A stretch of DNA of 64,000 nt. Source: Gammaproteobacteria bacterium. GTDB lineage: Bacteria > Pseudomonadota > Gammaproteobacteria > Steroidobacterales > XN24. The position numbers were made by a program, and so were the translations under genes. The stretch spans positions 13,157 through 77,156 of the forward strand of contig JBLRWC010000005.1 of assembly GCA_047921455.1 (NCBI GenBank), written 5' to 3'. Of this stretch, positions 11,678 through 33,664 are shown one piece after another. The stretch's first letter is position 1. The number at the start of each line of letters is the position of its first letter. The notes below the pieces were generated by a model, which had not been told where the DNA came from, did not search any database, and saw only the letters and a program-made list of their open reading frames with translations.

Positions 11678-11684
11678 CGGGCCG

Positions 11685-14491: not shown

Positions 14492-16234
14492 TCAAGCCAG
14501 CAGCCAGGCCATCGAGGCGGCCAGCAACAGCATCAACAGGCCCGTCATCGGCCAGATCGCAATCCGCGTCTCGCCATGACTGAGGCGGATGGACCAGCCC
14601 GGTCCGCTGCGTCCTAGCCGGTCGGCAAGACGCCCGAAAACGGCCAGCCGGCGCGGCAAGCGATGACTGAAAAAGTCGTTCAGCGCCGCCCCAAGAATCA
14701 GCACGCCGCGCTCGAGGAGGATACCGATGTCACCGGCCGGCACAGGCGGCAGTCCCGGCAGCCGACCGCGGCGATGCAGACGGACCGCGCCGAACGCAAT
14801 GATGCCGGCCAAGGCCAAGGGCCAGGATGCGCCCCAGAGCGCGCTGCCCTCCGTGGCCTCGCCACGCAGCACCGGCGCCGCCACCAGCCAGGGACCCGCG
14901 AGCCAGGCCACCAGCAACGCCAGCCAAGGCGCATACAGGCCGAACGGCAGTCGGGTCGCCTGCGCGCTCGCCCGGGGCCAGGCGAGCCAGAGAAAGCGCA
15001 GCATCAACAGGGTCGTCAGGGCCGAACTGATGCTGAGCAGCATGGGCAACGACGTGCTCCACGGTTCGGCGACGAGCTCGGCAGTCTGTTTCAGCGCGAG
15101 CTTCGCCACCAGGCCGCCGGTCAACGGACCGCCCGCGATAGCCAGCGCGCCGAGCGACAACACCACCGCCGCCAGCCGCGCCGCCGCCGGGCTCAGGGCG
15201 TGCTGCACGAGCCCCGCGCCGAGGAACAAGCCGCCTTTCACAAGGCTGTGATGAACCATGAAAATCAACACCGTCGCGAACAACAACGGCCAGTGCGCCG
15301 GGAACACCAGCCCCAGGCCGATCGCCAGCGTCATCAGGCCCATCTGGCTGATGCTCGAATATGCCAGCACTGTTTTGGCCTCACGCTGGGGCAGGCCGGC
15401 GAACACGCCATAATAGGCCGTGAACAAGCCGGCGACGGCCAGTCCCGCTCCCCAGGCCGGCAGCGCAATATCACCGAGCGGCAACAACCGCAGCCAGGCG
15501 ACCAGCCCCGCCTTGATCATCGCGCCTGACAGCACGGCGCTGGCAGGCGCGGGCGCTACCGGGTGTGCCAGGGGCAACCAGAAGTGCAGCCCGAAGACCC
15601 CGGCCTTGATGCCGAATCCCACCAGCAACAAGCCGATCGTCAGGTTGTTCCTGGTAGCGTCGTCCTCGAGAAACACGGTGCGCAACGCGGCAAAGTCGAT
15701 GTGCCCGCTGCTGGCGAGCATCATCAGCGCCGATATGATGCAGACCTCGCCAATCACCACCAGGGCGATGTAATAACGCCCGGCGTGTCGCGCTCGTTGA
15801 TCGCCCGCATGTACGACCAGTCCATAGGAGGCGAAACTCATGAGCGCGAAACCGAGATAAAACACGGCGGCGTCGAGCGCTACCAGCAACAGGAGGTTGC
15901 CGGCCATGGCCGCCAGGAACCAGCCGAAAAACACATCCCGGCGCGGCCCGGACTCGAGATAGCGCTGGGCGAACAGCCCGGCCGCCAGCCACAATCCCGC
16001 CGTGACCGGCAACAGCACGTTGGCAATGTCGTCGATGCCGAGCCGGGCGCCAAGCATCAGCCAGCCGATTTCCATCACCGGGGCGCCGGTTGCCACGAGC
16101 GTGCCGGCCAGCAACCCGGGCAGCGCCGCCCAAGGCGCCAGCACGCGCGCGGCCCCGCGTACTCGCTTCGACACCAGGCCGCCCACCAGCAGCAGCGGCC
16201 AGCAGACGGAGAAAAGCAGCACCAGGGTATTCAT
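14492..16234 (-). CDS. Antiporter-like subunit (Proton_antipo_M / NuoL-MrpA-like) with a C-terminal amphipathic tail and terminal TM anchor; set 1, last gene
   Basis: The 580-aa ORF has GFGIKAGVFGLHFWLPLAHPVAPAPASAVLSGAMIKAG and MVHHSLVKGGLFLGAG. The tail reads LNDFFSHRLPRRLAVFGRLADRLGR...IWPMTGLLMLLLAASMAWLLA. It shares an ATGA overlap with the upstream gene (16231-16234). Confidence 0.8.
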   Translation of the reverse strand: MNTLVLLFSVCWPLLLVGGLVSKRVRGAARVLAPWAALPGLLAGTLVATGAPVMEIGWLMLGARLGIDDIANVLLPVTAGLWLAAGLFAQRYLESGPRRDVFFGWFLAAMAGNLLLLVALDAAVFYLGFALMSFASYGLVVHAGDQRARHAGRYYIALVVIGEVCIISALMMLASSGHIDFAALRTVFLEDDATRNNLTIGLLLVGFGIKAGVFGLHFWLPLAHPVAPAPASAVLSGAMIKAGLVAWLRLLPLGDIALPAWGAGLAVAGLFTAYYGVFAGLPQREAKTVLAYSSISQMGLMTLAIGLGLVFPAHWPLLFATVLIFMVHHSLVKGGLFLGAGLVQHALSPAAARLAAVVLSLGALAIAGGPLTGGLVAKLALKQTAELVAEPWSTSLPMLLSISSALTTLLMLRFLWLAWPRASAQATRLPFGLYAPWLALLVAWLAGPWLVAAPVLRGEATEGSALWGASWPLALAGIIAFGAVRLHRRGRLPGLPPVPAGDIGILLERGVLILGAALNDFFSHRLPRRLAVFGRLADRLGRSGPGWSIRLSHGETRIAIWPMTGLLMLLLAASMAWLLA

Positions 16235-17790
16235 TTCGCCAGCAGGAAAGCTGCGCCCAAGGCGAACAGGATCATCATCAGGCTGGTGGCGGGCCAGGTG
16301 CGCAACCGGATATCCAGGCGATGCACGCGCCTCGACCAGGCCTCACCGTCCCACAGGTCGCGCACACGCGCCTCCAGGTGCCGGACGATGCGCGGCAGGT
16401 AGCGGACACACACTACCTGCAGCCAGCGCAGCGCAAGACCAACGCTTCGCTCAACCAGTACCAGCAGGTCGCCGGGCGGGATCCCCGGTTGCGCGCGGGC
16501 CGGCGCCAGGCGAAAAATCACCAGCGCCAGCGTGACGCCGATCGGCAGAATCCAGGTGGAGGCAAACACCGGCGGATGTGCGGCCCAGGCGAAACCGAGC
16601 CCGATCCCCGCGAGAATGAGCGGCGCGTATGCCAGCCGGGTTTTTTCCACGGACGCATCGTCACGCGCCACCGCCGGCGTCCTGCGCACCGTCAGGGTCA
16701 GCAGGAACGTTGCCGCGATCGCCGCCCCCGGCAGCAGCGCCGCCGCCCATATCGGCAGCACCTGCACGGCGTGCACCAGTAAATGACCGCCGGCCAACCC
16801 GTGCACCAGTACGGCGGCGGCGATGGCGATATCCCGGGGCCAGCCGGTATGCTGCAACGCGACCAGTGGCAGCGCGGCGCAGCACGCCAGCAGCGCTAAC
16901 GTGAGCCACGCCAGCTGGCCCTCCGGCCCGGCACCCGCCGGCATGGCCGCCAGCAGCAACGCAGCGGTGGCGGCCACGGCATAGCCGAGGGTCGCACGCG
17001 CGTTCACCTGGGCAAAGCCAGCGACCGCGGCCCATGCGGCGCCCGCGACCCCCAGCAACGCGCAGGTGACGCCCATCGGCGGGGCACCGGCCGGCAACAG
17101 CTTCATGATGCCGAAGAACGCCGCCGCAGGCAGCACCACCAGCAAGATCGCGCCCGTCGTACTGGCGGCCATGAGCGCCGGCGGCAGCCAGCCATGCGCC
17201 GGCGGAATACCGCCACGGAGGATCACCGCAATGAGTCCCATCACCAGCACGGCCGGCTTGAGGTCGATGGCCGGGCTCGCCGTCGCGCTCAAAAGCACCT
17301 CGAACACCAGCAGATCGCTCAGCACCAGCAATACGATCAGCGCGCGGCCGGGACGTCGCGAGCCTGCGCCCGGCTCACTGGCCATGGCCGCGTACAGGCC
17401 ATAGCCGGTCCAGAACATGCCCAGGTAGACCAATGGACCGCCTTCGGCGAGAGCCAGGAGCGTGGCGCCCGACAAGGCGACCAGCAGGGCGAACGCGGTC
17501 GGCCCCGGTTCCTGTGTGCGCGTGAGCAATAGCCCGGCACTAAGCCAGAGGCCGCCGAACAACAGCAGGGCGGCCCGCGCGACGGAATCCAGCACCAGCG
17601 CCGAGGTTCCCAGCACCAGGACTCCGGGCAAGCTGACCCGGTCCGGCGCGGCGACCATGGCCATGACGAGGGGGAAGGCGGCCACCAGCGCGACCAGCCA
17701 GCCCGCCGGCAGGTCGCGGCTACGCGACGACAACACCAGCCATGCGGCGGCGGCCAGCGGCACCAGCGGCAACGCCACCAACGTGCTCAT
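16231..17790 (-). CDS. Degenerate antiporter-like subunit (Proton_antipo_M-derived, conserved charged residues lost) with an amphipathic tail and terminal TM anchor
   Basis: The 519-aa polytopic ORF retains the HGWLPPA signature. In the eye alignment, the TM5 Glu position reads MFW, the TM7 Lys is Arg (VILRGG), VVKAG reads VVLPAA, and the TM12 Lys motif reads HGLAGGH. The tail is LRWLQVVCVRYLPRIVRHLEARVRDLW...SLMMILFALGAAFLLAK. It has ATGA overlaps at both ends. Confidence 0.65.
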   Translation of the reverse strand: MSTLVALPLVPLAAAAWLVLSSRSRDLPAGWLVALVAAFPLVMAMVAAPDRVSLPGVLVLGTSALVLDSVARAALLLFGGLWLSAGLLLTRTQEPGPTAFALLVALSGATLLALAEGGPLVYLGMFWTGYGLYAAMASEPGAGSRRPGRALIVLLVLSDLLVFEVLLSATASPAIDLKPAVLVMGLIAVILRGGIPPAHGWLPPALMAASTTGAILLVVLPAAAFFGIMKLLPAGAPPMGVTCALLGVAGAAWAAVAGFAQVNARATLGYAVAATAALLLAAMPAGAGPEGQLAWLTLALLACCAALPLVALQHTGWPRDIAIAAAVLVHGLAGGHLLVHAVQVLPIWAAALLPGAAIAATFLLTLTVRRTPAVARDDASVEKTRLAYAPLILAGIGLGFAWAAHPPVFASTWILPIGVTLALVIFRLAPARAQPGIPPGDLLVLVERSVGLALRWLQVVCVRYLPRIVRHLEARVRDLWDGEAWSRRVHRLDIRLRTWPATSLMMILFALGAAFLLAK

Positions 17791-19280
17791 GGCGCGTACT
17801 TGCGCGCCGCAATGAACTGCACCCAGTCAAGCGGCGTCCCCGGCATCGATGCGAACAGTCCCCATACCAGCGCCGCCGCGACCGTGAACAAGGGCGGCAA
17901 TAGCAACATCCAGGCGGTTTCCTTGCGGCCGAAACTGCGCTCCTTGGGCCACTGGTCGGGCGGCGCGTCGAACCAGGCCGCGCGCAGGATCGGCAGGAAG
18001 TAAGCCGCGTTCAACAGGCTGCTGCCGGCGAGCACCAGCACCACCCAGTCCTGGCCAACCTCCAGCGCACCGAGGCCGATGTACCACTTGCTGATGAAGC
18101 CGACCATCGGCGGTACCCCGATCATGCCCAGCGCCGCCAGCGTGAACGCCGCCATGGTCCAGGGCATGCGACGGCCGATGCCGCGCATCTCGCTCACCTT
18201 GTGCACGCCGAGCGTCTCCGCGAAGTTGCCGGCGCAGAAGAACAGCGTGATTTTCATAAAGCCCTGGTGGACCAGGTGGACCAGCCCGCCGATGGATGCG
18301 ATCGGCCCGGCAATGGCAATACCCAGCGTGATGTAAGACACCTGGCTGACCGTGGAGAACGCCAGCCGGCGTTTCAGGTCATCCTGGAACAACGCCCGGA
18401 CGGACCCGTAAATGATCGTGACCGAGGCGAGTATGGCCAACGGCAGCGTGACGCCGAGACTCGCCGCGAACTCGATGCCGAAGACGTCGTAGACAATGCG
18501 CACCACCCCGAACGCGCCGGCTTTCACAACCGCTACCGCGTGCAACAGGGCGCTCACCGGCGCCGGGGCGACCATGGCCAACGGCAACCAGACGTGCAGC
18601 GGCACCAACGCCGCCTTGACGCCTACCCCGAGAATCAGCAGCGTGAAAATCACCCGTAACACGCCGGGATCGATGCCCAGGCCGGCAATGAAGCCGCGAT
18701 CCACGAATTCCAGCGTGCCCGTCAGTGAGTACAGCCAGATCGTGCCCAGCAGCAGCAGCACGCCGCCGCCGATGGTGTAAGCGAGATAGACGCGCCCAGC
18801 CTTGCGGGCGACTTCCGTGCCCCGGTGCACCACCAAAGGATAGGTGGTGAGCGTCAGCGCTTCATAAAAGACCAGGAAGGTCAGCAGATTGCCCGCCATC
18901 GCCAGGCCGACCGTGGTGGTCACGCAAAGGCTGAAGTAGCCGAAGAAACGACTCCGGTTGGGCGAGTCCTCGAGGTAACCGATGGCATAGATGGTGGTCG
19001 CCAGCCAAAGCACCGCGGAGAGATTCACAAACAGCAACGACAAGGCGTCGGCATGCAGCACGAAATCGAGACCCGGCAACAGCGGCAAACGGAATTCGTA
19101 CTCCACGCCGTGCGAGACGCCGATCATCATCAGTAACAGCAGGATGATCTTCAGAACCGCGCCGGTGAGATTAAGCGTGATGCGCAGCGCCACCGCCTTT
19201 TCCGGCAACATGAAAATGATCAGGCCGGGAATCAGCGAGCTGGCCAGCACCAGCATGGGCAGCCAGGCGTTGGTCGTCAT
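17787..19280 (-). CDS. mrpD: Monovalent cation/H+ antiporter subunit D-family protein (set 1, second D)
   Basis: The ATG at 19280 (MTTNAWLPMLVL) forms an ATGA overlap with the upstream stop. Motifs: LVFYEALTLTTYPLV (TM5 Glu), GVGVKAALVPLHVWLPLAMVAPAPVSALLHAVAVVKAG, LVHQGFMKITLFFCAG. Confidence 0.85.
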   Translation of the reverse strand: MTTNAWLPMLVLASSLIPGLIIFMLPEKAVALRITLNLTGAVLKIILLLLMMIGVSHGVEYEFRLPLLPGLDFVLHADALSLLFVNLSAVLWLATTIYAIGYLEDSPNRSRFFGYFSLCVTTTVGLAMAGNLLTFLVFYEALTLTTYPLVVHRGTEVARKAGRVYLAYTIGGGVLLLLGTIWLYSLTGTLEFVDRGFIAGLGIDPGVLRVIFTLLILGVGVKAALVPLHVWLPLAMVAPAPVSALLHAVAVVKAGAFGVVRIVYDVFGIEFAASLGVTLPLAILASVTIIYGSVRALFQDDLKRRLAFSTVSQVSYITLGIAIAGPIASIGGLVHLVHQGFMKITLFFCAGNFAETLGVHKVSEMRGIGRRMPWTMAAFTLAALGMIGVPPMVGFISKWYIGLGALEVGQDWVVLVLAGSSLLNAAYFLPILRAAWFDAPPDQWPKERSFGRKETAWMLLLPPLFTVAAALVWGLFASMPGTPLDWVQFIAARKYAP

Positions 19281-20716
19281 GGCAACACCCCGTTCAGCAG
19301 GGGCAACGCCCAGGGCGCCACGAAACCGAGCGCTACCGCGCCGAGCGCAAGCAGCAGCGCGGTCCACTCCATGGTCGGCGGTACATCATGGCGCTCATGC
19401 TCGTGCGGCGACTTGGTGAAAGCGAACCCGAGCACGCGGAACACGTAGGTGGCCGTCAACATCCCGCCGACAATCATGACGAAAGCCCAGAACCATGCGC
19501 CCTGCGCCATGGCGGCCTGCAGCAACATCCACTTGCCGACGAAACCACCGCTCGGCGGCAGCCCCGCCAGGCTGATACCGGCCAGCGCAAATGCAGCCAG
19601 TGTCAGCGGCATGCGCTCCACGACCCGGTCCAGCTCGGCGATTTCGTCGTGTCCGCCCTGCGTCATGATGCTGCCAGCGGCAAGGAACATCGCGCCCTTG
19701 GCGAGCGCATGCGACAGCGCCAGGTAGATCGAGCCGCCCCAGGCCAGCGCCGGATCGAGGCCGGCCAGCGGGAAAGCGACAAACAGGTAACCGAGCTGCG
19801 CTACCGTGGAGTAGGCGACCAGCAGCTTCAACCGCTTCTGGCGCAACGCCTGGATGGAGCCCCAGAACACGGCGGCCGCGCCGAGTGAACCCAGCAGCAG
19901 CGGCACACCCTGGCCTTCCGGCATAAAGGTGAACCACAGCCGCAGCAGCAGGTAGAACGAAGCCTTGACAACCAGGCCGGAAAGCAAGGCGCTGACCGGC
20001 GCCCGCGCGCTACCGTGGGCCGGCGGCAGCCATACGTGGAAAGGAAATAGCCCGGTCTTGAGCAACAGGCCCGCAATCATCGCGCCCAGCGGCACCGCGA
20101 GGGCCAGGCCACCGTCCGAGCGTTCGCCGAGCAATGCGAGGTCGAGGGTGCCGTAAGCGTGGTACAGCAAGGCCACGCCGACCAGGTAGGCCAGCGAACC
20201 CAGCAGGCTGACCAGCAGGTAGCGCATCGCACCCCACAGCGCCGGGCCGGACCCGGTCAGCGCCACCAGCGCCACGGCCGACAACCCCAGCAATTCCAGC
20301 GTCACGTAGAGGTTGAAGACGTCGCCCGCCTGGAACAGCCCGTTCAGGGCCGCCCAGAGAAACATCCAGAGCGGCCAGAAGCGACGCACTTTGTCGGGCG
20401 AACTCGCCAGGTAAACGCGCGCGTAGATGCTCACGGCGGTGCCAACCACGGCCGTCATGGCGAGCATCAGTACACTCAGACCGTCGGCCAGCAGGTCGAT
20501 GCCCAGCGGCGCGCCCCAGCCGCCCAGCCGGTAGAGCCGGGCGCCGCCGAACGCCACCTGGAGAAGGACGCCGACGACCGAGGCCGTGATCAAAAACGAC
20601 ATGCCCAGCCCGATCGGCATGGCCCGGCGCGGGAACACGAATGCGAGCAGGGCCCCGATCAGCGGCAACGCGATCGTCCACAGCATCCACGGGGCTTCGG
20701 CCAGCCACTCAAGCAT
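19277..20716 (-). CDS. mrpD: Monovalent cation/H+ antiporter subunit D-family protein (set 1, first D)
   Basis: The 479-aa ORF has YVTLELLGLSAVALV, LLLKTGLFPFHVWLPPAHGSARAPVSALLSGLVVKAS and LSHALAKGAMFLAAG. Confidence 0.85.
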   Translation of the reverse strand: MLEWLAEAPWMLWTIALPLIGALLAFVFPRRAMPIGLGMSFLITASVVGVLLQVAFGGARLYRLGGWGAPLGIDLLADGLSVLMLAMTAVVGTAVSIYARVYLASSPDKVRRFWPLWMFLWAALNGLFQAGDVFNLYVTLELLGLSAVALVALTGSGPALWGAMRYLLVSLLGSLAYLVGVALLYHAYGTLDLALLGERSDGGLALAVPLGAMIAGLLLKTGLFPFHVWLPPAHGSARAPVSALLSGLVVKASFYLLLRLWFTFMPEGQGVPLLLGSLGAAAVFWGSIQALRQKRLKLLVAYSTVAQLGYLFVAFPLAGLDPALAWGGSIYLALSHALAKGAMFLAAGSIMTQGGHDEIAELDRVVERMPLTLAAFALAGISLAGLPPSGGFVGKWMLLQAAMAQGAWFWAFVMIVGGMLTATYVFRVLGFAFTKSPHEHERHDVPPTMEWTALLLALGAVALGFVAPWALPLLNGVLP

Positions 20717-20722
20717 CGTGCT

Positions 20723-21052
20723 CTATTGCTCCTCCTCGTCCATGAGGTCGCGCTCCCGATCCTCCGGCAGCGCGGGCTTGCCGGTCGTCCTGGCGATTCC
20801 CAGCACCAGCGCCAACGCCAGCGCGGTCGCGGAAATCGCCACCACGATCCCCGTGATGACCATCGCCTGCGGCACGGGATCCACGGCATCACCGTACATC
20901 GATCCGGTGCCGGCCAGCAGCAGGAATGTACCGCTGCCCATGATGTTGATCGCCAGCACCTTGCGAATCAGGTGCGCGCGCATGACCAGGGCCCAGGCGC
21001 CGATCACCAGCAGTCCGATGCCGGCAAACGCAAACAAGGTCCCCCCGCTCAC
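20723..21052 (-). CDS. mrpC: Cation:proton antiporter subunit C (NuoK-like)
   Basis: The 109-aa, three-TM ORF has LIRKVLAINIMGSGTFLLL and QAMVITGIVVAISATALALALV. It shares an ATGA overlap with the upstream MnhB-like gene. Confidence 0.8.
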   Translation of the reverse strand: MSGGTLFAFAGIGLLVIGAWALVMRAHLIRKVLAINIMGSGTFLLLAGTGSMYGDAVDPVPQAMVITGIVVAISATALALALVLGIARTTGKPALPEDRERDLMDEEEQ

Positions 21053-21735
21053 GGCTCATCCTCCGGCCGGCCGCCGATGAACAGGCCGGCGAGAATGACG
21101 GCAATGGACAGGGTCGCGGCAGTCTCGACCAGCAGGATCAGCGCGCCGGCGTAATCGACCGGGTACTGAAGAAAGCGGCGCCCTGGCGCCATGACGAACA
21201 AGCCGACGCCAAGGAACACGGCGAGGCCGACCACTGCGCCCCAGCGCAGCGACGCATCCGGCACCCGGAGGCGTGGCCGACGGCCCGAGAGAATGTAAAG
21301 CACGCCGGCAGCGGCCAGCACCGCACCGGCCTGGAATGCCCCGCCGGGTTGCGACTTGCCGGCCCAGAGCAGGTACGCGCAAATCATCGGCACCAGCGGG
21401 ATCAGGATGCTGTTCAGTCCCAGCAGCACGGGGCTCGGGGCGGTCTCCTTGATGCGCGGCGCCGGACCGAGCGCCCAGACGCCCACCAGCGCCGCCGTCA
21501 GGACCGCAATTTCAAGCAACGTGTCGTAACCGCGGAAGTTCAGCAAGACAGCGGTCACGGGATTGTCCGCGCCGCTGCGACCGAGCTCGGCCTCGACCAC
21601 GGCCGCCAGCCCAGGGCTGGCGGGTTCAACGAGCAAGGCGAGCCCCATGCCAACCGCCGCGGCCGCGAGCAACAGCGCCACGCCCATGCGCAGGAACAAT
21701 CCCGGCTCACCGAGCGGAGAGCTAGTCGCCATCAT
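21049..21735 (-). CDS. mrpB: Na+/H+ antiporter MnhB-domain subunit
   Basis: The start is placed at ATG 21735/21732 (MMATSSPLG), overlapping the upstream stop by 14 nt. It has the MnhB signature NPVTAVLLNFRGYDTLLEIAVL and GGAFQAGAVLAA. Confidence 0.75.
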   Translation of the reverse strand: MMATSSPLGEPGLFLRMGVALLLAAAAVGMGLALLVEPASPGLAAVVEAELGRSGADNPVTAVLLNFRGYDTLLEIAVLTAALVGVWALGPAPRIKETAPSPVLLGLNSILIPLVPMICAYLLWAGKSQPGGAFQAGAVLAAAGVLYILSGRRPRLRVPDASLRWGAVVGLAVFLGVGLFVMAPGRRFLQYPVDYAGALILLVETAATLSIAVILAGLFIGGRPEDEP

Positions 21736-22024
21736 CGTCCTCCTGCTCTGTCCGCCGCGCTTTGTCGCCACCGGACGCATCGTTGTTGTGCGGCAAGCGC
21801 CCCCAGGTCGCCAGCAACAAGGCGCCGGTCAGGCCTGCGCCGATGGCCGCCTCGGCGAGCGCGACATCCGGCGCGCCGAGCCTTGCCCAGGACATGGCCA
21901 GCACCAGGCCGAAGGCGATAAACAGCACGATGCCGCGGAACAGGTCGCGACTGGCGAGCGCAGCCCATGCCAGCCACAACAGCACGGCCACGAGCAGCAT
22001 GTCGAGCATCGCACCAGCGTTCAT
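21722..22024 (-). CDS. MbhD / DUF4040-like small membrane subunit (equivalent to the MrpA C-terminal region)
   Basis: The 100-aa ORF has LDMLLVAVLLWLAWAALASRDLFRGIVLFIAFGLVLAMSWARLGAPDVALAEAAIGAGLTGALLL. It shares an ATGA overlap with mrpG. Confidence 0.7.
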   Translation of the reverse strand: MNAGAMLDMLLVAVLLWLAWAALASRDLFRGIVLFIAFGLVLAMSWARLGAPDVALAEAAIGAGLTGALLLATWGRLPHNNDASGGDKARRTEQEDDDGD

Positions 22025-22323
22025 GATGCCGTCCAGGGTTTGACGCCCCGGCGCAGGCTGGAGCGTGCGATCAGGTGCGAGGCCGTCGCCCCGGCCAGCA
22101 ACACCAGCATCCAGATCAGCAATAACTTGCCGATCACCGCCAGGGACCCGGCCTGCAGCGCAAGACCCAGCACGGTGAGCCCCAGGCCGACATTATCGGC
22201 CTTCGTCAGGGCATGCAGCCGGCTGTACACATCCGGAAAGCGCAAGAGGCCGAGCGTGCCGGCGAAAAAGAACATCGCCCCACCGACGATCAGCAACGCA
22301 CTGAACCAGTCAATCAGCGACAT
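22021..22323 (-). CDS. mrpG: Monovalent cation/H+ antiporter subunit G
   Basis: The ATG at 22323 is preceded by GGGGAGG. The protein reads MSLIDWFSALLIVGGAMFFFAGTLGLLRFPDVYSRLHALTKADNVGLGL, the classic MnhG/PhaG N-terminus. Confidence 0.8.
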   Translation of the reverse strand: MSLIDWFSALLIVGGAMFFFAGTLGLLRFPDVYSRLHALTKADNVGLGLTVLGLALQAGSLAVIGKLLLIWMLVLLAGATASHLIARSSLRRGVKPWTAS

Positions 22324-23121: not shown

Positions 23122-23163
23122 GGCAGCTCCGGTGTGCTAAGGCTCCGATCAGCCGCGCGGGGG

Positions 23164-23904: not shown

Positions 23905-24084
23905 TCCGATGCGCCTCCCCCGCGCTGGTCGCGGCGGCGTATACACGGGAAATGCCGCCGACGCTAGCGATTATGCTCGCCTGGTTACCGCGAGAATTTG
24001 CTACCCATAATGAACTGCGCGCCATCCGGCCGCGTGCGGGTTTTCCGAAACCCGGTCGTGATCCGGCCGCCAGCCGTCACTGCT

Positions 24085-26727: not shown

Positions 26728-26734
26728 CTCGTGA

Positions 26735-28231
26735 TCATCCGGCACCGAAGAACACGGCCGCGGCGCGCACGGCCAGCGACAACGGCAGCCCCGGCGTCGC
26801 CGCCGCGATGCCAAGCAACAGGCTCAGCAGGGTAGCGACCAGCAAGGGAATCAGCATGCTGCGCGGCGCCTCGGGCCGCTGCGGCGTCGGCGCGTCCGCT
26901 GCCGGGGCATGGAAATAAGCCAGCCACACCGGTTGCAGCAGGTACAGGGCCGCCAGCAACGCCCCGCCCAGCAGGACCAGCAACACCAGCGGGTGTCCGG
27001 CCTCGAGCATGCCGACGCCCAGTACCCACTTGCTGATGAAACCGGACAGTGGCGGCACGCCGACGATCCCCAGCGCGGCGACGCTGAACGCGGCCATGGT
27101 AAGCGGCATGCGACGTGCCGCGCCCGCCATCTCCGAAACCCTGCGGATGCCCGCCTGGCTCGCCAGCAGGCCGGCGCAGAAAAACAGCGCGCCCTTGAGA
27201 AAGGCATGGTTGCTGATGTGCACCAGCGCGCCGCTCGTCACGTGCGGCGAGAGCAGCGAGATCGCCATCACGACATAGGCCATCTGGCTGATCGTGGACC
27301 AGGCCAGCCGGCGCTTCAGGTCGTCCTCGCCGGCCGCGAGGATGGCCGCCAGCAATACCGACACGGCCGCGACGCCCGTCAGGACGGGCATGACGCCCAG
27401 CAGCGACACGAGGCCGACACCGAATACCTCGAACACGACCCGCAGGATGCCGAAGCAACCCGTCGCGACCATCACGCCGGACAGCAGCGCCGAAAACGAG
27501 GCCGGCGCGGCCGGGTGCACGTCGGGCACCCAGCCGTGCAACGGCATCAACGCCGCCTTGACGCCGAAGCCCACCACCAGGCACCAGAAGGTGACCATGA
27601 GCAGCGTCCGGTCGGTGTCCGGGTCGAGCATGCCGCCGGGAGTGAACGGCTGGTCGCCGGCGAGGAAGAACGCAAAGATGACGCCCAGCAGAACCAGGCT
27701 GCCGCCGACCAGGATGTAAACGATGTACTTCGTACCCGCGCGGATGGCCTCGGGCGTCTCCTCGTGGACCACCAGCGGGTAGACCAGGATTGAGAACAGC
27801 TCGTAAAAGACCAGCAAGGTAATGAGATTGCCGGCAAAGGCGACGCCGAGCATCCAGCCGAGGCTCAGCATGAAAAACGCGTAGTAGCGGGTCTCGTGGC
27901 CATCGCGTCGCAGGTAACCGACCGAATACACCAGCGCGAGCAGGAACAGCACCGACACCGTGGCGGCAAACAAAGCTCCCATGGCGTCCACACGCAGGTA
28001 AAGCTGCACCTGCGGTGCAAAGTGCACCAGCGCCACCGCGCGGACTTCGCCCGCCAGCGCGCCTGGCACGAGGGAGAAGACCCCCAGCATTGTCGCGCAG
28101 CAGAGCGTGCCGAGCACGGCCAGCCTGCGCCGCTCGCCGTAGCGACGCAGCGGCAGCGCCAGCACCCCGCCGAGCAGGGGCAGCGCCACGACCAACGCCG
28201 GCAGCAGGCTGATCAGGGTGGTCGATGTCAT
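26735..28231 (-). CDS. mrpD: Monovalent cation/H+ antiporter subunit D-family protein (set 2, third D)
   Basis: The 498-aa ORF has LLVFYELFSILVYPLV, GFGVKAALMPLHGWVPDVHPAAPASFSALLSGVMVATG and ISNHAFLKGALFFCAG. Confidence 0.85.
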   Translation of the reverse strand: MTSTTLISLLPALVVALPLLGGVLALPLRRYGERRRLAVLGTLCCATMLGVFSLVPGALAGEVRAVALVHFAPQVQLYLRVDAMGALFAATVSVLFLLALVYSVGYLRRDGHETRYYAFFMLSLGWMLGVAFAGNLITLLVFYELFSILVYPLVVHEETPEAIRAGTKYIVYILVGGSLVLLGVIFAFFLAGDQPFTPGGMLDPDTDRTLLMVTFWCLVVGFGVKAALMPLHGWVPDVHPAAPASFSALLSGVMVATGCFGILRVVFEVFGVGLVSLLGVMPVLTGVAAVSVLLAAILAAGEDDLKRRLAWSTISQMAYVVMAISLLSPHVTSGALVHISNHAFLKGALFFCAGLLASQAGIRRVSEMAGAARRMPLTMAAFSVAALGIVGVPPLSGFISKWVLGVGMLEAGHPLVLLVLLGGALLAALYLLQPVWLAYFHAPAADAPTPQRPEAPRSMLIPLLVATLLSLLLGIAAATPGLPLSLAVRAAAVFFGAG

Positions 28232-28243
28232 ACGCTCATTCCC

Positions 28244-29719
28244 CTAGATACCGGTGACGAACTTGACCGTGGCCTGGGCCAGCGAGAACGGCATGCCCGG
28301 GATGCGCGAGGTCATACCGAGCAGCAGCACGTAAGCCGCGCTGATGAGCGTGGGCACCAGCAGCAGGGCCCTGGCCTCGTGCACGCCCCGCGGCAAGCCG
28401 CGCGGCTCACGGAACCAGGCGAGATAGAGTATGGGCAGCCAGTACGCAGCATTCAGCAGCGAACTCACCACCATCAACAGCACCCACCACCAGGCGCCGG
28501 CCTGCAGGGCGCCGAGCGACAGGAACCACTTGGTGACGAAGCCCGCGAACAACGGAATGCCGATGAAGCTCAGCGCGGCGATGGTGAACGCACCCATGGT
28601 CCAGGGCATCACTCGACCGATGCCGGCCAGTTCATGAATGTGCGTGCGGCCAGTGGTGCGCTCGATGGCGCCGGCGACAAAGAACATGGTGATCTTGGCA
28701 AACGCCTGGTTGGCGATATGCGCCACCGCGGCCAGCGCAGCCAGCGGTGTGAGCAAGGCGGCCGCGAGCACGATATACGACAGCTGGCTGACCGTGGAGT
28801 ACGCCAGTCGAAGCTTGAGCTTGCTCTGCGCCAGGGCCAGCAACGAGGCCGCAACGATCGTAAAGGCGGCAAACAACGCCAGCCAGTCCGTGTAGCCGAG
28901 CACCGCCAGCAGGTCGATGCCGAACACGTTGTAAATGACCCGCAGCAGGCCGAATACACCCGCCTTCACCACGGCGACGGCATGTAACAGCGCGCTCACG
29001 GGGACCGGTGCGATCATCGCCGTGGGCAGCCAGCCGTGCAGCGGCATGATGGCGGCCTTGACGCCGAAGCCCGCGACCAGCACGAGGAAAGTGACGAACA
29101 GCATCGGCCGGCCAGCCTCCAGCGACAACACGCCGGGCATCGATAGCGTCAAGGTCCCCGCCAGGTGCTGCACGAGCACTACGCCGAGCAGCACCGCCAC
29201 GCCGCCGGAGAGCGTATAAGCGAGGTACTTGCGGCCGGCTTTCATCGCCTCCGGCGTTTCGTCGTGGATCACCAGCGGATAGGTGCAAATGGTCAGCATT
29301 TCGTAAAACAGGAACAGGGTCAGCAGGTTTTCTGCGAATGCGAGGCCGACCGTCGTCGAGACACATAGCGCGAAGAAACCGAAAAAGCGGGCGCGCTCGT
29401 GCTGGCCCTTCATGTAGCCGATGGCATAAACGGTCGTCACCACCCACAGCGTCGAGGAAACCAGGGCGAAGAACATGCCCAGCCCGTCCGCACGAAACGC
29501 GATGCCGATGCCGGGCGGAAAGTCGATAAGGTCGTAGACATACACCGTGCCCGCGAGACTGCCCGGCAGCATGGAAAGCACGATTCCCAGCTTCGCCACC
29601 GAGGCGCCGAGCGCCAGTACGACCCGCCACAGGTCCCGCTGGCCGACCAGGAAAATGAGAATTGCGCAAACCAGTGAAAGCGCCGGCGCGAGGACGATCC
29701 TGATGTCGACGACCTCCAT
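28244..29719 (-). CDS. mrpD: Monovalent cation/H+ antiporter subunit D-family protein (set 2, second D)
   Basis: The 491-aa ORF has LFLFYEMLTICTYPLV, GFGVKAAIMPLHGWLPTAMIAPVPVSALLHAVAVVKAG and IANQAFAKITMFFVAG. It is clearly the same subtype as 17787..19280. Confidence 0.85.
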   Translation of the reverse strand: MEVVDIRIVLAPALSLVCAILIFLVGQRDLWRVVLALGASVAKLGIVLSMLPGSLAGTVYVYDLIDFPPGIGIAFRADGLGMFFALVSSTLWVVTTVYAIGYMKGQHERARFFGFFALCVSTTVGLAFAENLLTLFLFYEMLTICTYPLVIHDETPEAMKAGRKYLAYTLSGGVAVLLGVVLVQHLAGTLTLSMPGVLSLEAGRPMLFVTFLVLVAGFGVKAAIMPLHGWLPTAMIAPVPVSALLHAVAVVKAGVFGLLRVIYNVFGIDLLAVLGYTDWLALFAAFTIVAASLLALAQSKLKLRLAYSTVSQLSYIVLAAALLTPLAALAAVAHIANQAFAKITMFFVAGAIERTTGRTHIHELAGIGRVMPWTMGAFTIAALSFIGIPLFAGFVTKWFLSLGALQAGAWWWVLLMVVSSLLNAAYWLPILYLAWFREPRGLPRGVHEARALLLVPTLISAAYVLLLGMTSRIPGMPFSLAQATVKFVTGI

Positions 29720-29723
29720 GGCG

Positions 29724-31202
29724 TTATCCCCCGCTCACCAGGCGCCCGACCGCCGGCGCGATCAACATCACCGGCCAGCGCCCGAACAAGCCGCCCAGCA
29801 CGCACAACGCGGCCAGCAGCAGCACCGGCCCCAGCATGGCGGCGGGCGCCTCGCGCACCGCCAGCATCTGCTCGTGGGCAGGTGCGCGGAAATAGAAAGC
29901 ATTCAGCATGCGTCCCAGGTAGATGAACACCAGCAGTGCGCCGGCCAGCACCACGACCGCAAATCCCGGTCGCCCGGCCTCCAACGCGCCCAGCGCGATA
30001 TACCACTTGCCGAGGAAGCCCGCCGTCGGCGGCAGGCCGGTAATCGACAACGCGCCCACCAATAGCGCCAGCGTCGTCCATGGCATGACGCGGCCGATGC
30101 CGCGCAGATCGGTGAGCGTCCGGTAACCGCTCTGGTGCAGCATGGCACCGACCGCGAGAAACAACGTGGCCTTGATAAGTGCATGGTTCAGCACGTGGAT
30201 CGTGCCACCGGTCACGGCGAGTTCGCCGGCGAGTCCGAGGCCAAGCACGATATAGCCGATGTTCGAGATGGTGGAGTACGCCAGCATCAGCTTGATGTCC
30301 TCCTGGAACACGGCAAAGAATGCCCCCGCCAGGATAGAGATTGCGCCCAGCCAGGCCAGCGCTTCGTAGAGCGGCTCAAGCGACACGCCCGCCGCGGTGT
30401 CGAACAAAAAGAAGATCCGCAGCAAGCCGATGATGCCGAGCTTGACCACCAGCGCCGAGGACACGGCGTTGATCGGGGTCGGCGCAATGGCATGCGCGTC
30501 CGGCAGCCAGACATGCACGGGGAACAGGCCGGCCTTGACCATGAAGCCTGCCGTCATGCCGGCGAGGGCCAGCAGGAGCGGCGCCCGCGATTCGACCGTG
30601 GCCAGCCTGAGCGCGACGTCCGCCATGTTCAGGCTGCCGGTCAGGGCATACAGCACGCCGATGCAGAACAGGATGAGCGCCGACGACACGGCACCGGCCA
30701 TCAGGTATTTGAACGCTGCCAGCGCGGCCGTGCGACCGCCGCCCACCGCCACCAGCGCATAGCTCGAGACGGCGACCAGTTCCATGAAGACAAACAGGTT
30801 GAACAGGTCGGCGGTGACCACAAAGCCGATCATGCCGCCGAGATTGATGAGTAACAGGCTGTAGTACCAGGGGATGCGATGGGCCGGCACCGCGCGCCGC
30901 ACATAGGGGCCGGAGAAGATCACGACCAGCACCATGATGAAAGCGATGAACAGCGCCGCCGCGCTGAACTCGTCGAACACGAGCGCAATACCCCAGGGCG
31001 CCGCCCAGCCGCCCAGTTCGTACGAGAACGGCCCTTCGCGCACCACGCGCTGCGTCAAATTCGCGGTCATGAAAGTAACAGCGACGGTCACCCCCAGTGC
31101 CCAGCCACGGGCCACCCCGGGGCGCCCGCGCGCCAACACAGGCGTCAGTGCGCCGGCCACCAGGGGGACGAATGCGGCCAGTGGCAGCCAGTGCGTCATC
31201 AC
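29724..31202 (-). CDS. mrpD: Monovalent cation/H+ antiporter subunit D-family protein (set 2, first D)
   Basis: The 492-aa ORF has LFVFMELVAVSSYALV, GFMVKAGLFPVHVWLPDAHAIAPTPINAVSSALVVKLG and VLNHALIKATLFLAVG. It is the same subtype as 19277..20716. Confidence 0.85.
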   Translation of the reverse strand: MMTHWLPLAAFVPLVAGALTPVLARGRPGVARGWALGVTVAVTFMTANLTQRVVREGPFSYELGGWAAPWGIALVFDEFSAAALFIAFIMVLVVIFSGPYVRRAVPAHRIPWYYSLLLINLGGMIGFVVTADLFNLFVFMELVAVSSYALVAVGGGRTAALAAFKYLMAGAVSSALILFCIGVLYALTGSLNMADVALRLATVESRAPLLLALAGMTAGFMVKAGLFPVHVWLPDAHAIAPTPINAVSSALVVKLGIIGLLRIFFLFDTAAGVSLEPLYEALAWLGAISILAGAFFAVFQEDIKLMLAYSTISNIGYIVLGLGLAGELAVTGGTIHVLNHALIKATLFLAVGAMLHQSGYRTLTDLRGIGRVMPWTTLALLVGALSITGLPPTAGFLGKWYIALGALEAGRPGFAVVVLAGALLVFIYLGRMLNAFYFRAPAHEQMLAVREAPAAMLGPVLLLAALCVLGGLFGRWPVMLIAPAVGRLVSGG

Positions 31203-31558
31203 TCCGCGCCTTTCAGTTCATCCGCCTCGATGGTGCCGCATTGCCGGTAGATCTCGATGATGAGACTCAGGGCCAGCGCAGTGACGCTGACAGCCACCAC
31301 GATGCCCGTCAGGATCAGGGCATGCGGCAGGGGACTTGCGAAGGGGCCGGTCGCGCCAGCGCTGGTGATGGGCGCTGTACCGCCATCGACCATGCCGGCC
31401 GTGACGATGAAGGCGAATACCGCCGTCTCCATGATGTTGAGACCCAGCAATTTCTTGATGAGATTCTGCTTGGCCAGGATGATGTACAGGCCAATGCAGA
31501 ACAACACGACGAACGCGACATAATCGATGTTGAACCACAGGCCAGCCACGTCAGTCAC
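31199..31558 (-). CDS. mrpC: Cation:proton antiporter subunit C (NuoK-like)
   Basis: The start is placed at GTG 31558, overlapping the upstream stop; GTG 31549 is an alternative. It has LIKKLLGLNIMETAVFAFIV and HALILTGIVVAVSVTALALSLI. Confidence 0.75.
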   Translation of the reverse strand: MTDVAGLWFNIDYVAFVVLFCIGLYIILAKQNLIKKLLGLNIMETAVFAFIVTAGMVDGGTAPITSAGATGPFASPLPHALILTGIVVAVSVTALALSLIIEIYRQCGTIEADELKGAE

Positions 31559-32270
31559 CCCGCATTTCGAGGAACAGGCCGAGGATAATGGCCCCGCCGC
31601 CAACGCCGATGCCGAGTTCCAGCGTGATCATCATCAATTCCCGCAGCAGGTGTTGCCCGGGATCATCCGGATAACCCAGCAGCGCGCCGGTCAGCGCCAG
31701 CCCGAGCAGGCCGACGACCAGGAAGGCGAGCGGCCCGGCGACCTGCAGCCAGCGCGCGATCGCCACGGGGATCAGCGGCTGCTGCGCGTCCCGTCCCAGC
31801 ACGACGCTAAGCAGCACCAGCAGCGCGCCGAGAATCACGCCGCCCTGGAACCCGCCCCCCGGCGCAAGATGGCCCTTGAAGATGACGAAGGCGCCGAACG
31901 CCGCAATGAAGGGCGCGGTGATCCGGATGATGAAGGACACCACGGGACTGATCGTTACTCGCTCTGCGGCCGCGGGCCCGGCACCCTCGCCTCGCGCGCT
32001 ACCTGGGGTCGACAGCACCGCCATGACGGCGGCCAGCGCGACAAAAATAATCATGACCTCGCCGAACGTGTCGAAGGCCCGGTAATTCAGCAGCACCGCG
32101 GTCACCAGGTTGTCCGCGCCGGTCTCCCGCGCGCCTGCCTCGATGTAGTGGGCAGCCACATGCGTGTGGACCGGCGCGGCCGGGTCTCCCGGTCGCGGCA
32201 GCGCCATCACCCCGGCCAGCATGGGTATCGCTGCCGCGGCGACTGTCAGCGCGATCAACGGCTTCTTCAT
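31551..32270 (-). CDS. mrpB: Na+/H+ antiporter MnhB-domain subunit
   Basis: The ATG at 32270 (MKKPLIALTV) forms an ATGA overlap with the upstream gene. It has NLVTAVLLNYRAFDTFGEVMIIF and GGGFQGGVILGA. Confidence 0.75.
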   Translation of the reverse strand: MKKPLIALTVAAAAIPMLAGVMALPRPGDPAAPVHTHVAAHYIEAGARETGADNLVTAVLLNYRAFDTFGEVMIIFVALAAVMAVLSTPGSARGEGAGPAAAERVTISPVVSFIIRITAPFIAAFGAFVIFKGHLAPGGGFQGGVILGALLVLLSVVLGRDAQQPLIPVAIARWLQVAGPLAFLVVGLLGLALTGALLGYPDDPGQHLLRELMMITLELGIGVGGGAIILGLFLEMRGD

Positions 32271-32509
32271 TTTTCGTGCCTCCGCGTGCGCCCGATGGCA
32301 AGCAGCACAAGGATGGTCGTGACGCCCGCCCCGATCGCTGCTTCGGTCATGGCGACGTCCGGCGCGCCCCGGTGCTGCCAAAGCACGCACATGACGAGGC
32401 TGTAACCCGAAAAAATAATCGCTGCCGCCACCAGGTTCTTGCTGCGCGCTACCGCGAGTGCCATGGCGATCAGCAACGCAAGCATCACGAGGTCGAAAAA
32501 CTCGCTCAT
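32267..32509 (-). CDS. MbhD / DUF4040-like small membrane subunit
   Basis: The ATG at 32509 is preceded by GGAGAG. The protein reads MSEFFDLVMLALLIAMALAVARSKNLVAAAIIFSGYSLVMCVLWQHRGAPDVAMTEAAIGAGVTTILVLL and is a paralogue of 21722..22024. Confidence 0.7.
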   Translation of the reverse strand: MSEFFDLVMLALLIAMALAVARSKNLVAAAIIFSGYSLVMCVLWQHRGAPDVAMTEAAIGAGVTTILVLLAIGRTRRHEK

Positions 32510-32826
32510 TCTTTCTCTCCCGGTCCACGCCAGGGCTGCAGGCCGGTGTTGTATGCCGCGCGGGCGAGCGCGTGCCCGGATGTCGGGCTGGATAACAACA
32601 CCAGCACCAGCAGGACAATGATTTTCAGGGCGTCGGCCTGCGGCGCCACGTAAATTGCCAGCGCCACCAGGATCGCGCCTGCGCCAACCGTGTCGCACTT
32701 GGTGGCGGCATGGACCCTCGAGTAGAAATCCGGCAGGCGTAGCAGGCCGAGCGTTCCGGTGAGGAAAAACAGCGCGCCCCCCACTCCGAGCAGCAGGGTC
32801 GCGACCATGACGAACGTGTCGCTCAT
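32506..32826 (-). CDS. mrpG: Monovalent cation/H+ antiporter subunit G
   Basis: The ATG at 32826 forms an ATGA overlap with the mrpF stop. It has LLLGVGGALFFLTGTLGLLRLPDFYSRVHAATKCDTVGAG. Confidence 0.8.
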   Translation of the reverse strand: MSDTFVMVATLLLGVGGALFFLTGTLGLLRLPDFYSRVHAATKCDTVGAGAILVALAIYVAPQADALKIIVLLVLVLLSSPTSGHALARAAYNTGLQPWRGPGEKE

Positions 32827-33101
32827 CGTTGCCAGTCCCCCTTCAGCCGGCCGGTCTCCAGGAAGCGCGTCGCCGCGATAGTGATGCCGAAATTCAACAG
32901 GCCATACACCAGGGCGACGTCGAGCAACAGGCTGCGCTCGAAAGCGAGACCAAGCAGTACCAGGACCACCAGCACCTTGGTGCAAACGACATTCGTTGCC
33001 AGGATGCGGTCCACCACGGTGGGGCCGGCAAAGGCGCGCCACAGGCAGGCGAACGCGTTAATCAACAGGAAACTTGCCAGGCTCCAAAAAAAAACCGTCA
33101 C
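32823..33101 (-). CDS. mrpF: Monovalent cation/H+ antiporter subunit F
   Basis: The 92-aa ORF has LLINAFACLWRAFAGPTVVDRILATNVVCTKVLVVLVLL. Confidence 0.8.
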   Translation of the reverse strand: MTVFFWSLASFLLINAFACLWRAFAGPTVVDRILATNVVCTKVLVVLVLLGLAFERSLLLDVALVYGLLNFGITIAATRFLETGRLKGDWQR

Positions 33102-33664
33102 GCCCCTTCCCCCTGCTCGAAGACCTCGGCGACGCGTCGCTCGAGCTCACCACTAAGGATTCGTTCGACGGATTCCTCATCGAGACAGTGCACCAGGAAA
33201 TCGCTGCCAGAGACGTCTACCGTCAGCGTGCCGGGCGTCAACGAGACGGAATGCGCAAACGCGATGCGCGAGACTTCGCGTTGCAGCTGCGTGCGGCAGA
33301 CAAACAGGCGCGGTTCGATCGGCAGGCGCGGATTCATGACGATGAGGGCGACATGAATGGCCGAATGCAGCACCTGCAAGCTGAAGCGCGCCAGGTAGCG
33401 CAACAAGGCCAGGGACTCCCGCAGCGAAATGCCTGGCGCCTGCCCGGCCCACAGGAAGCGCGCCGACCACCAGCCCAGCAGCAACGACAGCACTGCGCCC
33501 ACGGCAACATCGACCGGCGCAAGCGAGGCCGAGATCACCAGCCAGAATACAAACACGAGCGCACTGACCCCTAGCGTGTGGGGCGCCCGCACGCCGGAAT
33601 TCCAGGCGCCCGGGTCCGGCGACCCGCGCGCGTCCTGCCGGACAGGTCTCCCGCTTGCTTTCAT
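33098..33664 (-). CDS. mrpE: Na+/H+ antiporter subunit E
   Basis: This 188-aa ORF is the first gene of set 2. It has ALVFVFWLVISASL...IAFAHSVSLTPGTLTVDVSGSDFLVHCLD, parallel to set-1 MrpE. The exact start is uncertain. Confidence 0.7.
   Translation of the reverse strand: MKASGRPVRQDARGSPDPGAWNSGVRAPHTLGVSALVFVFWLVISASLAPVDVAVGAVLSLLLGWWSARFLWAGQAPGISLRESLALLRYLARFSLQVLHSAIHVALIVMNPRLPIEPRLFVCRTQLQREVSRIAFAHSVSLTPGTLTVDVSGSDFLVHCLDEESVERILSGELERRVAEVFEQGEGA

Follow-up and report, generated by a model that had tools for sequence, protein, structure and literature searches.

Mrp systems, the multisubunit cation/proton antiporters of the CPA3 family (TC 2.A.63), are seen as the source from which the membrane arms of complex I, MBH and MBS evolved, and there is continuing dispute over how proton movement along a row of antiporter-like subunits is coupled to one ion or redox site. 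Two tandem gene sets of this kind, here called set A and set B, occupy positions 14492-33664, on the minus strand, of a 64,000-nucleotide stretch of gammaproteobacterial DNA (contig JBLRWC010000005.1; hereafter the window, meaning that whole stretch), and each combines genes for small Mrp subunits with genes for four large antiporter-like ones. The feature is real and well conserved, it belongs to Group 3 Mrp and is not a new category, and both sets probably work as stand-alone secondary cation/proton antiporters of the Group 3 kind with a raised H+ stoichiometry.

Group 3 Mrp clusters have no mrpA and only mrpD, sometimes in multiple copies (PMC8415708), or an irregular gene order (PMC5703873). 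Characterised examples are mrpEFGBB'CD of Pyrococcus furiosus, with one antiporter-like subunit (PMC8415708), and mrpCD1D2EFGAB of Aphanothece halophytica, with two mrpD genes in another order and functional in E. coli (PMC5703873); both act as Na+-coupled antiporters (PMC8415708; PMC5703873). Genome papers list as Mrp the clusters MrpEFGBBCDD of the Solemya velum symbiont (PMC4287430), Mnh/MrpEFGBCD1D2D3 of Verruconatronum (PMC13274419) and MrpEFGBBBCD plus MrpDD of NPL-UPA2 (PMC6305446), and extra NuoM/L-like genes follow mrpD in Candidatus Nitrospira alkalitolerans (PMC7784846). Going by their descriptions, such clusters are like those in the window in having extra MrpD-like genes after mrpD, in often coming from haloalkaliphiles and in being annotated as Na+/H+ antiporters, but only that of A. 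halophytica, with two D genes in a different order, has been functionally tested, and the genome papers hold no analysis of a four-subunit chain, a tail, a degenerate subunit or substitutions in MrpF and MrpC. A "2M" complex I with four antiporter-like subunits and a lengthened NuoL lateral helix was reportedly described by Chadwick et al. in 2018. Like the present sets it has four antiporter-like subunits in a row and a terminal helix lengthened alongside the added subunits, but it is a redox-driven NADH:quinone oxidoreductase with NuoA-K, whereas the sets in the window have no redox module, and the tail of set A is extended by far more than its one helix segment per added subunit. According to Steiner and Sazanov, antiporter-like subunits come in one to four copies, four being cited for complex I only, and in complex-I-like enzymes a third and a fourth subunit can be added to the two-subunit unit with no change of mechanism (PMC7419157).

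Genes in the window, whose G+C content is about 62-70%, were modelled as stop-to-stop open reading frames (ORFs) with high G+C at third codon positions (GC3), their starts being picked by overlap with the upstream stop. Pfam matches resolve the interval into two sets of ten genes in the same order (MrpE, F, G, MbhD, an MbhE-MnhB fusion, MrpC and four antiporter-like genes), set A running from 33664 down to 24085 and set B from 23121 to 14492, with a methyltransferase gene (MT) between them. An earlier note, made from the letters alone, had recognised this paralogous arrangement correctly and had miscounted its genes as nineteen where there are 21 (10 + 1 + 10). Below, the prefixes A_ and B_ denote the set, L its terminal large gene and X the third large gene of set B. 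Adjacent genes within a set mostly share 4-14 nt or lie no more than 16 nt apart, and the genes inside each set are predicted to be translationally coupled. Larger gaps separate A_L from MT (about 180 bp), MT from B_E (42 bp) and B_L from a following cytochrome gene (85 bp). Matches in an intrinsic-terminator scan all fell within T-rich codons of membrane-protein genes, none of them in these three gaps, and operon boundaries are defined here by gene spacing only. A 102-aa ORF at 23985-24293, which overlaps the 3' end of A_L and matches no family, was taken as non-coding. Paralogues of the two sets are 31-49% identical by BLASTP, and A_G (N-terminus MSDTFVMVATLLLGV) and B_G (N-terminus MSLIDWFSALLIVGG) give no match at E <= 1e-3, values that point to an ancient duplication, as the earlier note had held against a recent one.

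The content of both sets is that of Mrp/CPA3 in general, with MNHE, MrpF_PhaF, PhaG_MnhG_YufB, MbhD, MbhE+MnhB, Oxidored_q2 and Proton_antipo_M domains, and in neither does any protein join Proton_antipo_M to MbhD or MnhB domains, which separates them from Groups 1 and 2 and agrees with the earlier claim that a fused MrpA is lacking. By gene content, then, both sets fall in Group 3, the recognised catch-all class without fused MrpA; the long-chain sets that the earlier note had proposed are real, and they do not lie outside known classes. The "only mrpD" of the class definition would here be true at the level of annotation only, the terminal subunits being MrpA-N-like in structural models. No evidence was found in the literature that the exact ten-gene composition belongs to a biochemically characterised subgroup, the known Group 3 examples being different, and literature searches on mrpD1/D2/D3 and on Coriobacteriia with Mrp returned nothing. 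The cluster of P. furiosus shares with both sets the order E-F-G, split MrpA-C/MrpB proteins, C and D, without fused MrpA or redox module, but it has one antiporter-like subunit and no lateral-helix subunit where the window sets have four, with one or two of L type, and it fuses MbhD to MbhE where both window sets fuse MbhE to MnhB. Compared with the canonical Group 1/2 systems of Bacillus pseudofirmus, Anoxybacillus flavithermus and Dietzia (PDB 7qru, 6z16, 7d3u), all seven subunit families are present, as are the antiporter Glu/Lys residues, the Glu of the MrpA C-terminal part, the D..E exit pair, and a terminal subunit with a fifteenth transmembrane (TM) helix, a cytoplasmic helix and an anchoring TM helix, whereas the fused MrpA and the two antiporter-like subunits of those systems are replaced by none and four, respectively.

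The two rows of large subunits differ in architecture. Set A encodes three tail-less D subunits, D1 (29724..31199, 491 aa, MrpD/MbhH type; Proton_antipo_M, E 7e-62), D2 (28244..29719, 491 aa; E 1e-50) and D3 (26735..28231, 498 aa; E 2e-52), followed by one long-tailed L of the MrpA-N/NuoL/MbhH-like type (24085..26718, 877 aa; Proton_antipo_M). Set B encodes D1 (19277..20716, 479 aa; E 6e-55) and D2 (17787..19280, 497 aa; E 9e-60), then the degenerate, short-tailed X (16231..17790, 519 aa), without sequence match in Pfam, NCBIfam or the PDB, and a short-tailed NuoL/ND5-like L (14492..16234, 580 aa; E 4e-36). Thus the tailed L-like subunit that the earlier note had placed at the end of both sets is there, and so are four antiporter-like subunits in each, but the sets do not share one architecture and not all eight proteins are of Proton_antipo_M type, B_X matching no Pfam model. 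No large subunit scores above the curated cutoff of any NCBIfam model, and therefore no equivalog name is applicable to them. The best PDB sequence matches of A_D1 are 6cfw_H, 6u8y_H and 7qru_D (MbhH, MbsH and MrpD), A_D2 is nearest to MbsH, MbhH and MrpA, the core of A_L to MbhH and MrpA, and B_L has a weak ND5/NuoL-like match.

When the eight proteins are aligned, the charged residues characteristic of Mrp/CPA3 antiporter subunits (Glu in TM5, Lys in TM7, Lys or His in TM8, Lys in TM12) are complete in five, A_L, A_D1, A_D2, B_D1 and B_D2, each with Glu in TM5 and Lys in TM7, TM8 and TM12. In A_D3 the TM8 Lys is Ala, in B_L the TM5 Glu is Ala, and in B_X the TM5 Glu is Thr and the three Lys are Arg, Ala and Ala. 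B_X is recognisable as antiporter-like only through a BLASTP match to B_L (28% identity, E 1.5e-10) and through its family profile, which aligns with that of the A_L family across TM1-10 (hhalign probability 94%, E 1e-7). Clustered at 90% identity, the small B_X family comprises about 90 clusters, with cultured isolates among its members and only gammaproteobacteria among the named ones. Conserved at 42-91% identity, with invariant residues of its own (R192, H199, W201, D159 and E164), B_X has the pattern of a conserved degenerate module rather than a decaying gene. Both B_X and B_L end in a short amphipathic lateral helix and a TM helix.

Relatives were surveyed with one genome per GTDB species, giving 80 loci that were annotated by phmmer with the window proteins. 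The order E-F-G-MbhD-(MbhE+B)-C-D1-D2-D3-L, with an L of about 850-940 aa, recurs in Gammaproteobacteria ("Thioalkalivibrio" and metagenome-assembled genomes, MAGs, of Wenzhouxiangellaceae), in many Coriobacteriia and other Actinomycetota, and in one Elusimicrobia MAG (L077), and in bacterial loci with this order every position best matches the same subunit of the window. The survey that the earlier note had proposed thus finds the ten-gene layout in three bacterial groups, and nearly so in two archaeal orders, a Methanosarcinales genome (L036) and a Hydrothermarchaeales MAG (L038) in which D2 and D3 are swapped or ambiguous. Full-length relatives of A_L, of 840-940 aa, number in the hundreds, and members of the A_L and B_X families also occur in Thioalkalivibrio spp. 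XN8 and XN279. Shorter versions, with D1 and one or two L-type subunits or of the form D1-D-L(-L), are found in Clostridia, Erysipelotrichaceae and Izemoplasmatales, and the tails of set B resemble the Firmicutes type D1-D-L(104)-L(55). The tandem of set A, MT and set B is conserved in six gammaproteobacterial loci and, in addition, in the cultured Wenzhouxiangella sp. XN24 (L082), where synteny with the window reaches as far as the genes for the Cu-ATPase, ferric reductase and TamB. Set B stands alone, without set A, MT or cytochrome gene, in a distant gammaproteobacterial contig (L081), and a Truepera MAG (L040) has a B-like set. The Hydrothermarchaeales locus L038 and the loci L061, L071, L076 and L077 have a further Mrp-like set, partial or complete, or additional antiporter-like genes beside the first, sometimes on the opposite strand, so that the window is not alone in having tandem or paired sets of this kind.

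The main argument that all four large subunits belong to one chain comes from the tail of the last one. A_L consists of a core of 14 TM helices and TM15, followed by an Arg/Ala-rich helical tail of about 320 residues (residues ~556-877; 43 Arg and 56 Ala per 290 residues) that ends in a single C-terminal TM helix. The lateral helix of canonical Mrp is roughly 50-60 residues long, and this tail is much longer. In an AlphaFold2 (AF2) model with a mean pLDDT of 82, the tail forms several long helices, with high confidence at 650-785, low confidence or disorder at 789-861 and the TM helix at 859-876. The whole model superposes on MrpA, NuoL and MbhH in Foldseek, MrpA chains being the top matches, whereas a tail-only AF2 model had no structural match in the PDB; its weak, generic helical hits (designed repeats, BAR domains, IncA; best E-value 0.075) were rejected as a fold assignment. 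A profile of the tail, run against 1.84 billion representatives, gave 50 matches, all of them C-termini, or fragments, of proteins of 812-953 aa of the A_L kind, which marks the ~320-residue tail as apparently specific to the A_L family. Across the related loci, L extends past the core by 52-92 aa where a single D subunit precedes it, by 104-120 aa where there are two and by 244-380 aa where there are three. Such growth with the number of D subunits fits a clamp spanning the subunit row. The first step amounts to about 30 residues per added D, and the NuoL helix of the four-subunit complex I of Chadwick et al. 2018 is said to be extended by a similar step. From these regularities we infer that the four subunits are assembled in one chain; the three-D tail goes far beyond what a single helix would need and so would hold something extra.

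These observations also bear on the view that the extra D-like genes encode alternative or condition-specific isoforms, each complex still containing one or two antiporter-like subunits, which we consider unlikely. It would suit interchangeable paralogues that A_D2, A_D3 and B_D2 resemble one another (43-49% identity, with A_D2 and B_D2 at 49%) more than they resemble D1, and that related clusters carry two, three or four such genes. The coupling within one operon and the conservation of position-specific orthologues in three bacterial phyla speak against it, as does the confinement of the tail to the last subunit of set A and the last two of set B; moreover, a tail that lengthens with the number of tail-less D subunits before it would be pointless if those subunits were alternatives.

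The small subunits of set A are nearest to P. furiosus MBS and MBH chains and not to bacterial Mrp. They comprise MrpE (33098..33664; 188 aa as the longest ORF, its true start being uncertain; MNHE, E 2.4e-30; 4-nt overlap with the next gene), MrpF (32823..33101, 92 aa; MrpF_PhaF, E 1.3e-14), MrpG (32506..32826, 106 aa; PhaG_MnhG_YufB, E 6e-27, and above the NCBIfam TIGR01300 cutoff with 94.4 vs 63.1 bits), an MbhD-like protein equivalent to MrpA TM17-19 (32267..32509, 80 aa; MbhD, E 1.1e-20), an MbsE-like fusion with Pfam MbhE and MnhB domains (31551..32270, 239 aa; best PDB match 6u8y_E, which is MbsE) and an MrpC/NuoK-like protein (31199..31558, 119 aa; Oxidored_q2, E 3.3e-24; best PDB match 6u8y_G). 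Their counterparts in set B are MrpE (22582..23121, 179 aa; MNHE, E 1e-25), MrpF (22310..22585, 91 aa; E 1e-11), MrpG (22021..22323, 100 aa; PhaG_MnhG_YufB, E 1.4e-26), the MbhD-like protein (21722..22024, 100 aa; MbhD, E 7e-20), the fusion (21049..21735, 228 aa; MnhB and MbhE) and the MrpC/NuoK-like protein (20723..21052, 109 aa; Oxidored_q2, E 1.4e-16). The MrpA C-terminal part is accordingly split as in archaeal Mbh/Mbs, in line with the earlier note, but what it had read as a plain MnhB gene carries MbhE and MnhB domains in both sets, a fusion like that of P. furiosus MbsE.

Several residues proposed to line the cation path are retained. The MbhD Glu is present in both sets (in APDVAMTEAAIG of A_MbhD and APDVALAEAAIG of B_MbhD), Glu56 of A_MbhD aligning with MbhD E69, which is homologous to E706 of A. 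flavithermus MrpA (PMC7419157), and the D..E pair equivalent to A. flavithermus D792/E796 is found as FDTFGE in the set-A fusion and YDTLLE in that of set B, so that neither set lacks these acidic residues of the MrpA C-terminal part. MrpF is different. The second Asp of its DRxxAxD motif (A. flavithermus D35, B. pseudofirmus D38) has been described as "invariably conserved" and placed on a proposed Na+ uptake path, and the D35L substitution is inactivating (PMC7419157; PMC9568556). Alignment with the five solved homologues (6u8y_B, 6cfw_B, 6z16_F, 7qru_F and 7d3u_F), all of which have Asp there, shows that this residue is missing from both sets, being Asn in A_F (N37; motif GPTVVDRILATN) and Gln in B_F (Q37; motif GPTAADRMLAAQ). 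The replacements extend to the relatives, 56 of the 58 A-type F ORFs having Asn and six of the seven B-type ones Gln; by contrast the F subunits of P. furiosus MBH and MBS, which unlike the F of its stand-alone Mrp were part of the comparison, have Asp. In MrpC, where canonical Mrp has two His, TM2 of A_C reads LNIMETAVF, with a Glu as in MbsG at the positions of A. flavithermus H37/H40 (D37/H41 in MBH), and TM2 of B_C reads INIMGSGTF, without carboxylate or His; both motifs are conserved in the respective relatives. Set A thus resembles MBS in its ion module, apart from one neutralised residue, and set B has lost two of the proposed cation ligands. What appears to be new is the set-A ten-gene layout conserved position by position across phyla, together with a tail specific to one family and the clade-wide replacement of the MrpF Asp.

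In the mechanism that we favour, an archaeal Mbh/Mbs-like ion-coupling module (E, F, G, MbhD, MbhE-MnhB and C) would be joined to four antiporter-like subunits and not to two. The row of set A would consist of three tail-less D subunits and then the MrpA-N/NuoL-like L, whose tail and terminal TM helix would clamp the row as the lateral helix does in MrpA and NuoL, and that of set B of two D subunits and two short-tailed L-type ones, the first of which, X, may be a catalytically degenerate spacer. For canonical Mrp roughly 2 H+ per cation are assumed, and alkaline pH homeostasis requires that H+ entry exceed Na+ exit (PMC7419157). A higher ratio is expected of both sets, in which each ion module would be served by four proton modules (set A) or by two to three active ones (set B); the exchange would be electrogenic, and each cation path would be matched by up to four H+ paths in set A and by two or three in its paralogue. 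In haloalkaline habitats the membrane potential could then drive H+ uptake and Na+ or K+ extrusion in the face of a steeper reversed pH gradient. If n H+ enter for each Na+ that leaves, the upper limit of the reversed gradient that a given membrane potential could sustain would scale as (n-1)/n, a factor that rises from 0.5 at n = 2 to 0.75 at n = 4. We infer the stoichiometry, the transported cation and the physiological role from these comparisons.

Several observations sit uneasily with this account. The tail found after three D subunits exceeds the length required of a simple lateral helix by 100-200 residues, in the AF2 model it forms several long helices of no known fold, and its role as a clamp is a guess. 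The MrpF Asp that Steiner and Sazanov call invariant is replaced in both sets, and B_C also lacks the MrpC His or acidic residue; the cation path would therefore be unlike any so far studied in Mrp, and it is uncertain which ion is transported, above all by set B. A tri-haem cytochrome gene, conserved at the end of the set-B operon in this lineage, is left unexplained by an antiporter model. The habitat link, finally, is anecdotal. The relatives include Thioalkalivibrio, Wenzhouxiangellaceae, Natronincolaceae, Alkaliphilus, Tindallia, CSSed/CSBr and CROMO, which we take to be haloalkaline or serpentinite labels, but many others are non-alkaline, such as Danish soil MAGs and groundwater ones.

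A stand-alone four-module Mrp would offer a clean test, free of redox chemistry, of whether each added module moves one added proton per cycle, and the relatives provide a natural series of two, three and four modules along with a paralogue that contains a naturally dead one. The loss throughout a clade of the "invariant" MrpF aspartate bears on competing models of the Na+ path, and a higher H+/Na+ ratio, if true, would explain how some haloalkaliphiles keep their cytoplasmic pH well below that outside. Experiments are feasible, since both sets are present at a fully syntenic locus in the cultured Wenzhouxiangella sp. XN24.

It seems quite unlikely that one or both sets serve as the ion-translocating arm of a pump that is energised, by redox chemistry or otherwise, through an input module encoded at another site, the tri-haem cytochrome being a possible candidate for set B. 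Respiratory complexes have repeatedly recruited Mrp modules (PMC8165549), and the loss of cation-path residues from MrpF and MrpC of set B would fit coupling to something other than Na+. However, Pfam scans of 30 predicted flanking genes of the window, several shorter ORFs being left out, found no NuoB/C/D/H/I, hydrogenase or formate dehydrogenase, as the earlier note had stated, and among the window genes scanned there was likewise no NuoH, NuoA/J or Q-module family (NuoB/C/D/I) of complex I, and neither the MBH/MBS catalytic module (MbhJ/K/L/N) nor the MbhM anchor. The Pfam-annotated neighbours of L081 and L082 include no redox module of the MBH/MBS kind. Nor did clustering of the flanking ORFs of the 80 loci yield a neighbour family common across phyla; the recurrent neighbours (GGDEF, Usp, HlyIII, histidine kinase, an Fe-S protein and, at four loci, AFOR) are lineage-specific, a redox partner among them was rejected as a general feature, and the ten-gene unit is therefore taken to be self-contained. 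In MBH a hydrogenase module replaces MrpA-N, and in complex I the redox module is attached at the E/F/G side (PMC7419157). Both of these docking faces are filled by Mrp subunits in the window sets, extra antiporter-like subunits at one end and E/F/G/B at the other. It is because all Mrp parts are present, both faces are filled and no input module is conserved nearby that we read the sets as secondary exchangers.

The cytochrome gene itself (13972..14406, minus strand; 144 aa), absent from the earlier note's account, lies 85 bp past set B and is the last gene on this strand. It encodes a c-type cytochrome with three CXXCH motifs, at residues 49, 84 and 122, and an N-terminal hydrophobic, signal-like segment; database matches are weak and sub-threshold (Cytochrome_C7, c7-like, and NrfB-like). 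Each of the five tandem loci long enough to show it has the gene after B_L on the same strand, which favours the pump, but the gene is absent from L081 and from all set-A loci outside this lineage, and its product is predicted to be periplasmic whereas the known input modules of the superfamily are all cytoplasmic. In L081 the B-only set (4584-13308) adjoins ccmC, ccmE and ccmF and a cyclic-nucleotide (cNMP)-binding regulator (477-3866, minus strand), which lie divergently upstream of MrpE; the presence of ccm genes here may be fortuitous, or it may again point to a connection of set B with c-type cytochromes. Taken to its furthest, the evidence would describe a distinct, phylum-spanning branch of Mrp in which the Na+-entry residue is replaced and the proton arm has four modules, with set A an electrogenic exchanger of 3-4 H+ per cation held by a new multi-helix cytoplasmic clamp, and set B coupling proton flow to an ion other than Na+ or receiving an unprecedented periplasmic redox or regulatory input, as the lost MrpC ligand, the dead spacer and the cytochrome gene that always follows set B in this lineage would suggest; that all of this holds jointly is rather unlikely.

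That set B is a decaying duplicate without a function of its own is very improbable, for although B_X matches no Pfam or NCBIfam model and has lost the canonical charged residues, B_L its TM5 Glu, and B_F and B_C key residues, its ten ORFs are intact with a GC3 of 0.83-0.86 similar to that of neighbouring genes, the B_X family is conserved as described above, the Gln of MrpF and the Gly of MrpC are themselves conserved, and the set-B layout recurs alone in L081 and in similar form in Truepera.

The gene between the sets (23164..23904, minus strand; 246 aa) encodes a class I S-adenosylmethionine-dependent methyltransferase (Pfam Methyltransf_25/11/23). It is present between the sets in all seven related tandem loci, and the set-B operon may begin with it, 42 bp ahead of B_E. 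No NCBIfam model was above its cutoff, the glycine/sarcosine N-methyltransferase model reaching 19.9 bits against a cutoff of 350, and an assignment of specificity was dropped.

Around the two sets the window carries genes for TamA/TamB, a Cu-type P-ATPase, a ferric-reductase-like flavocytochrome, AbgT, an ABC exporter, a GGDEF protein, LrgAB, Rho, a DEAD helicase, a DUF1302/DUF1329/BNR/MMPL cluster, PlsB and trehalose-6-phosphate synthase, together with others that have no connection with respiration. The tri-haem cytochrome gene converges on that of the Cu-type P-ATPase, their 3' ends overlapping by 32 bp. At 10175-14003 (plus strand) a flavocytochrome with Ferric_reduct, FAD and NAD domains adjoins a P1B-type ATPase with an HMA domain, a pair that is syntenic in XN24. 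Four genes at 46927-53930 (minus strand) encode DUF1302, DUF1329 (LolA-like), BNR/Ycf48-like and MMPL/RND-type transporter proteins, a recurrent and poorly understood envelope cluster. The trehalose-6-phosphate synthase (Glyco_transf_20; 57296-58681, plus strand) is consistent with an osmoadapted host. At 60996-63825 (minus strand) lie two neighbouring GTPase genes (MMR_HSR1, one with DUF697) whose longest ORFs overlap by about 280 bp, so that at least one of the start codons is probably further downstream.

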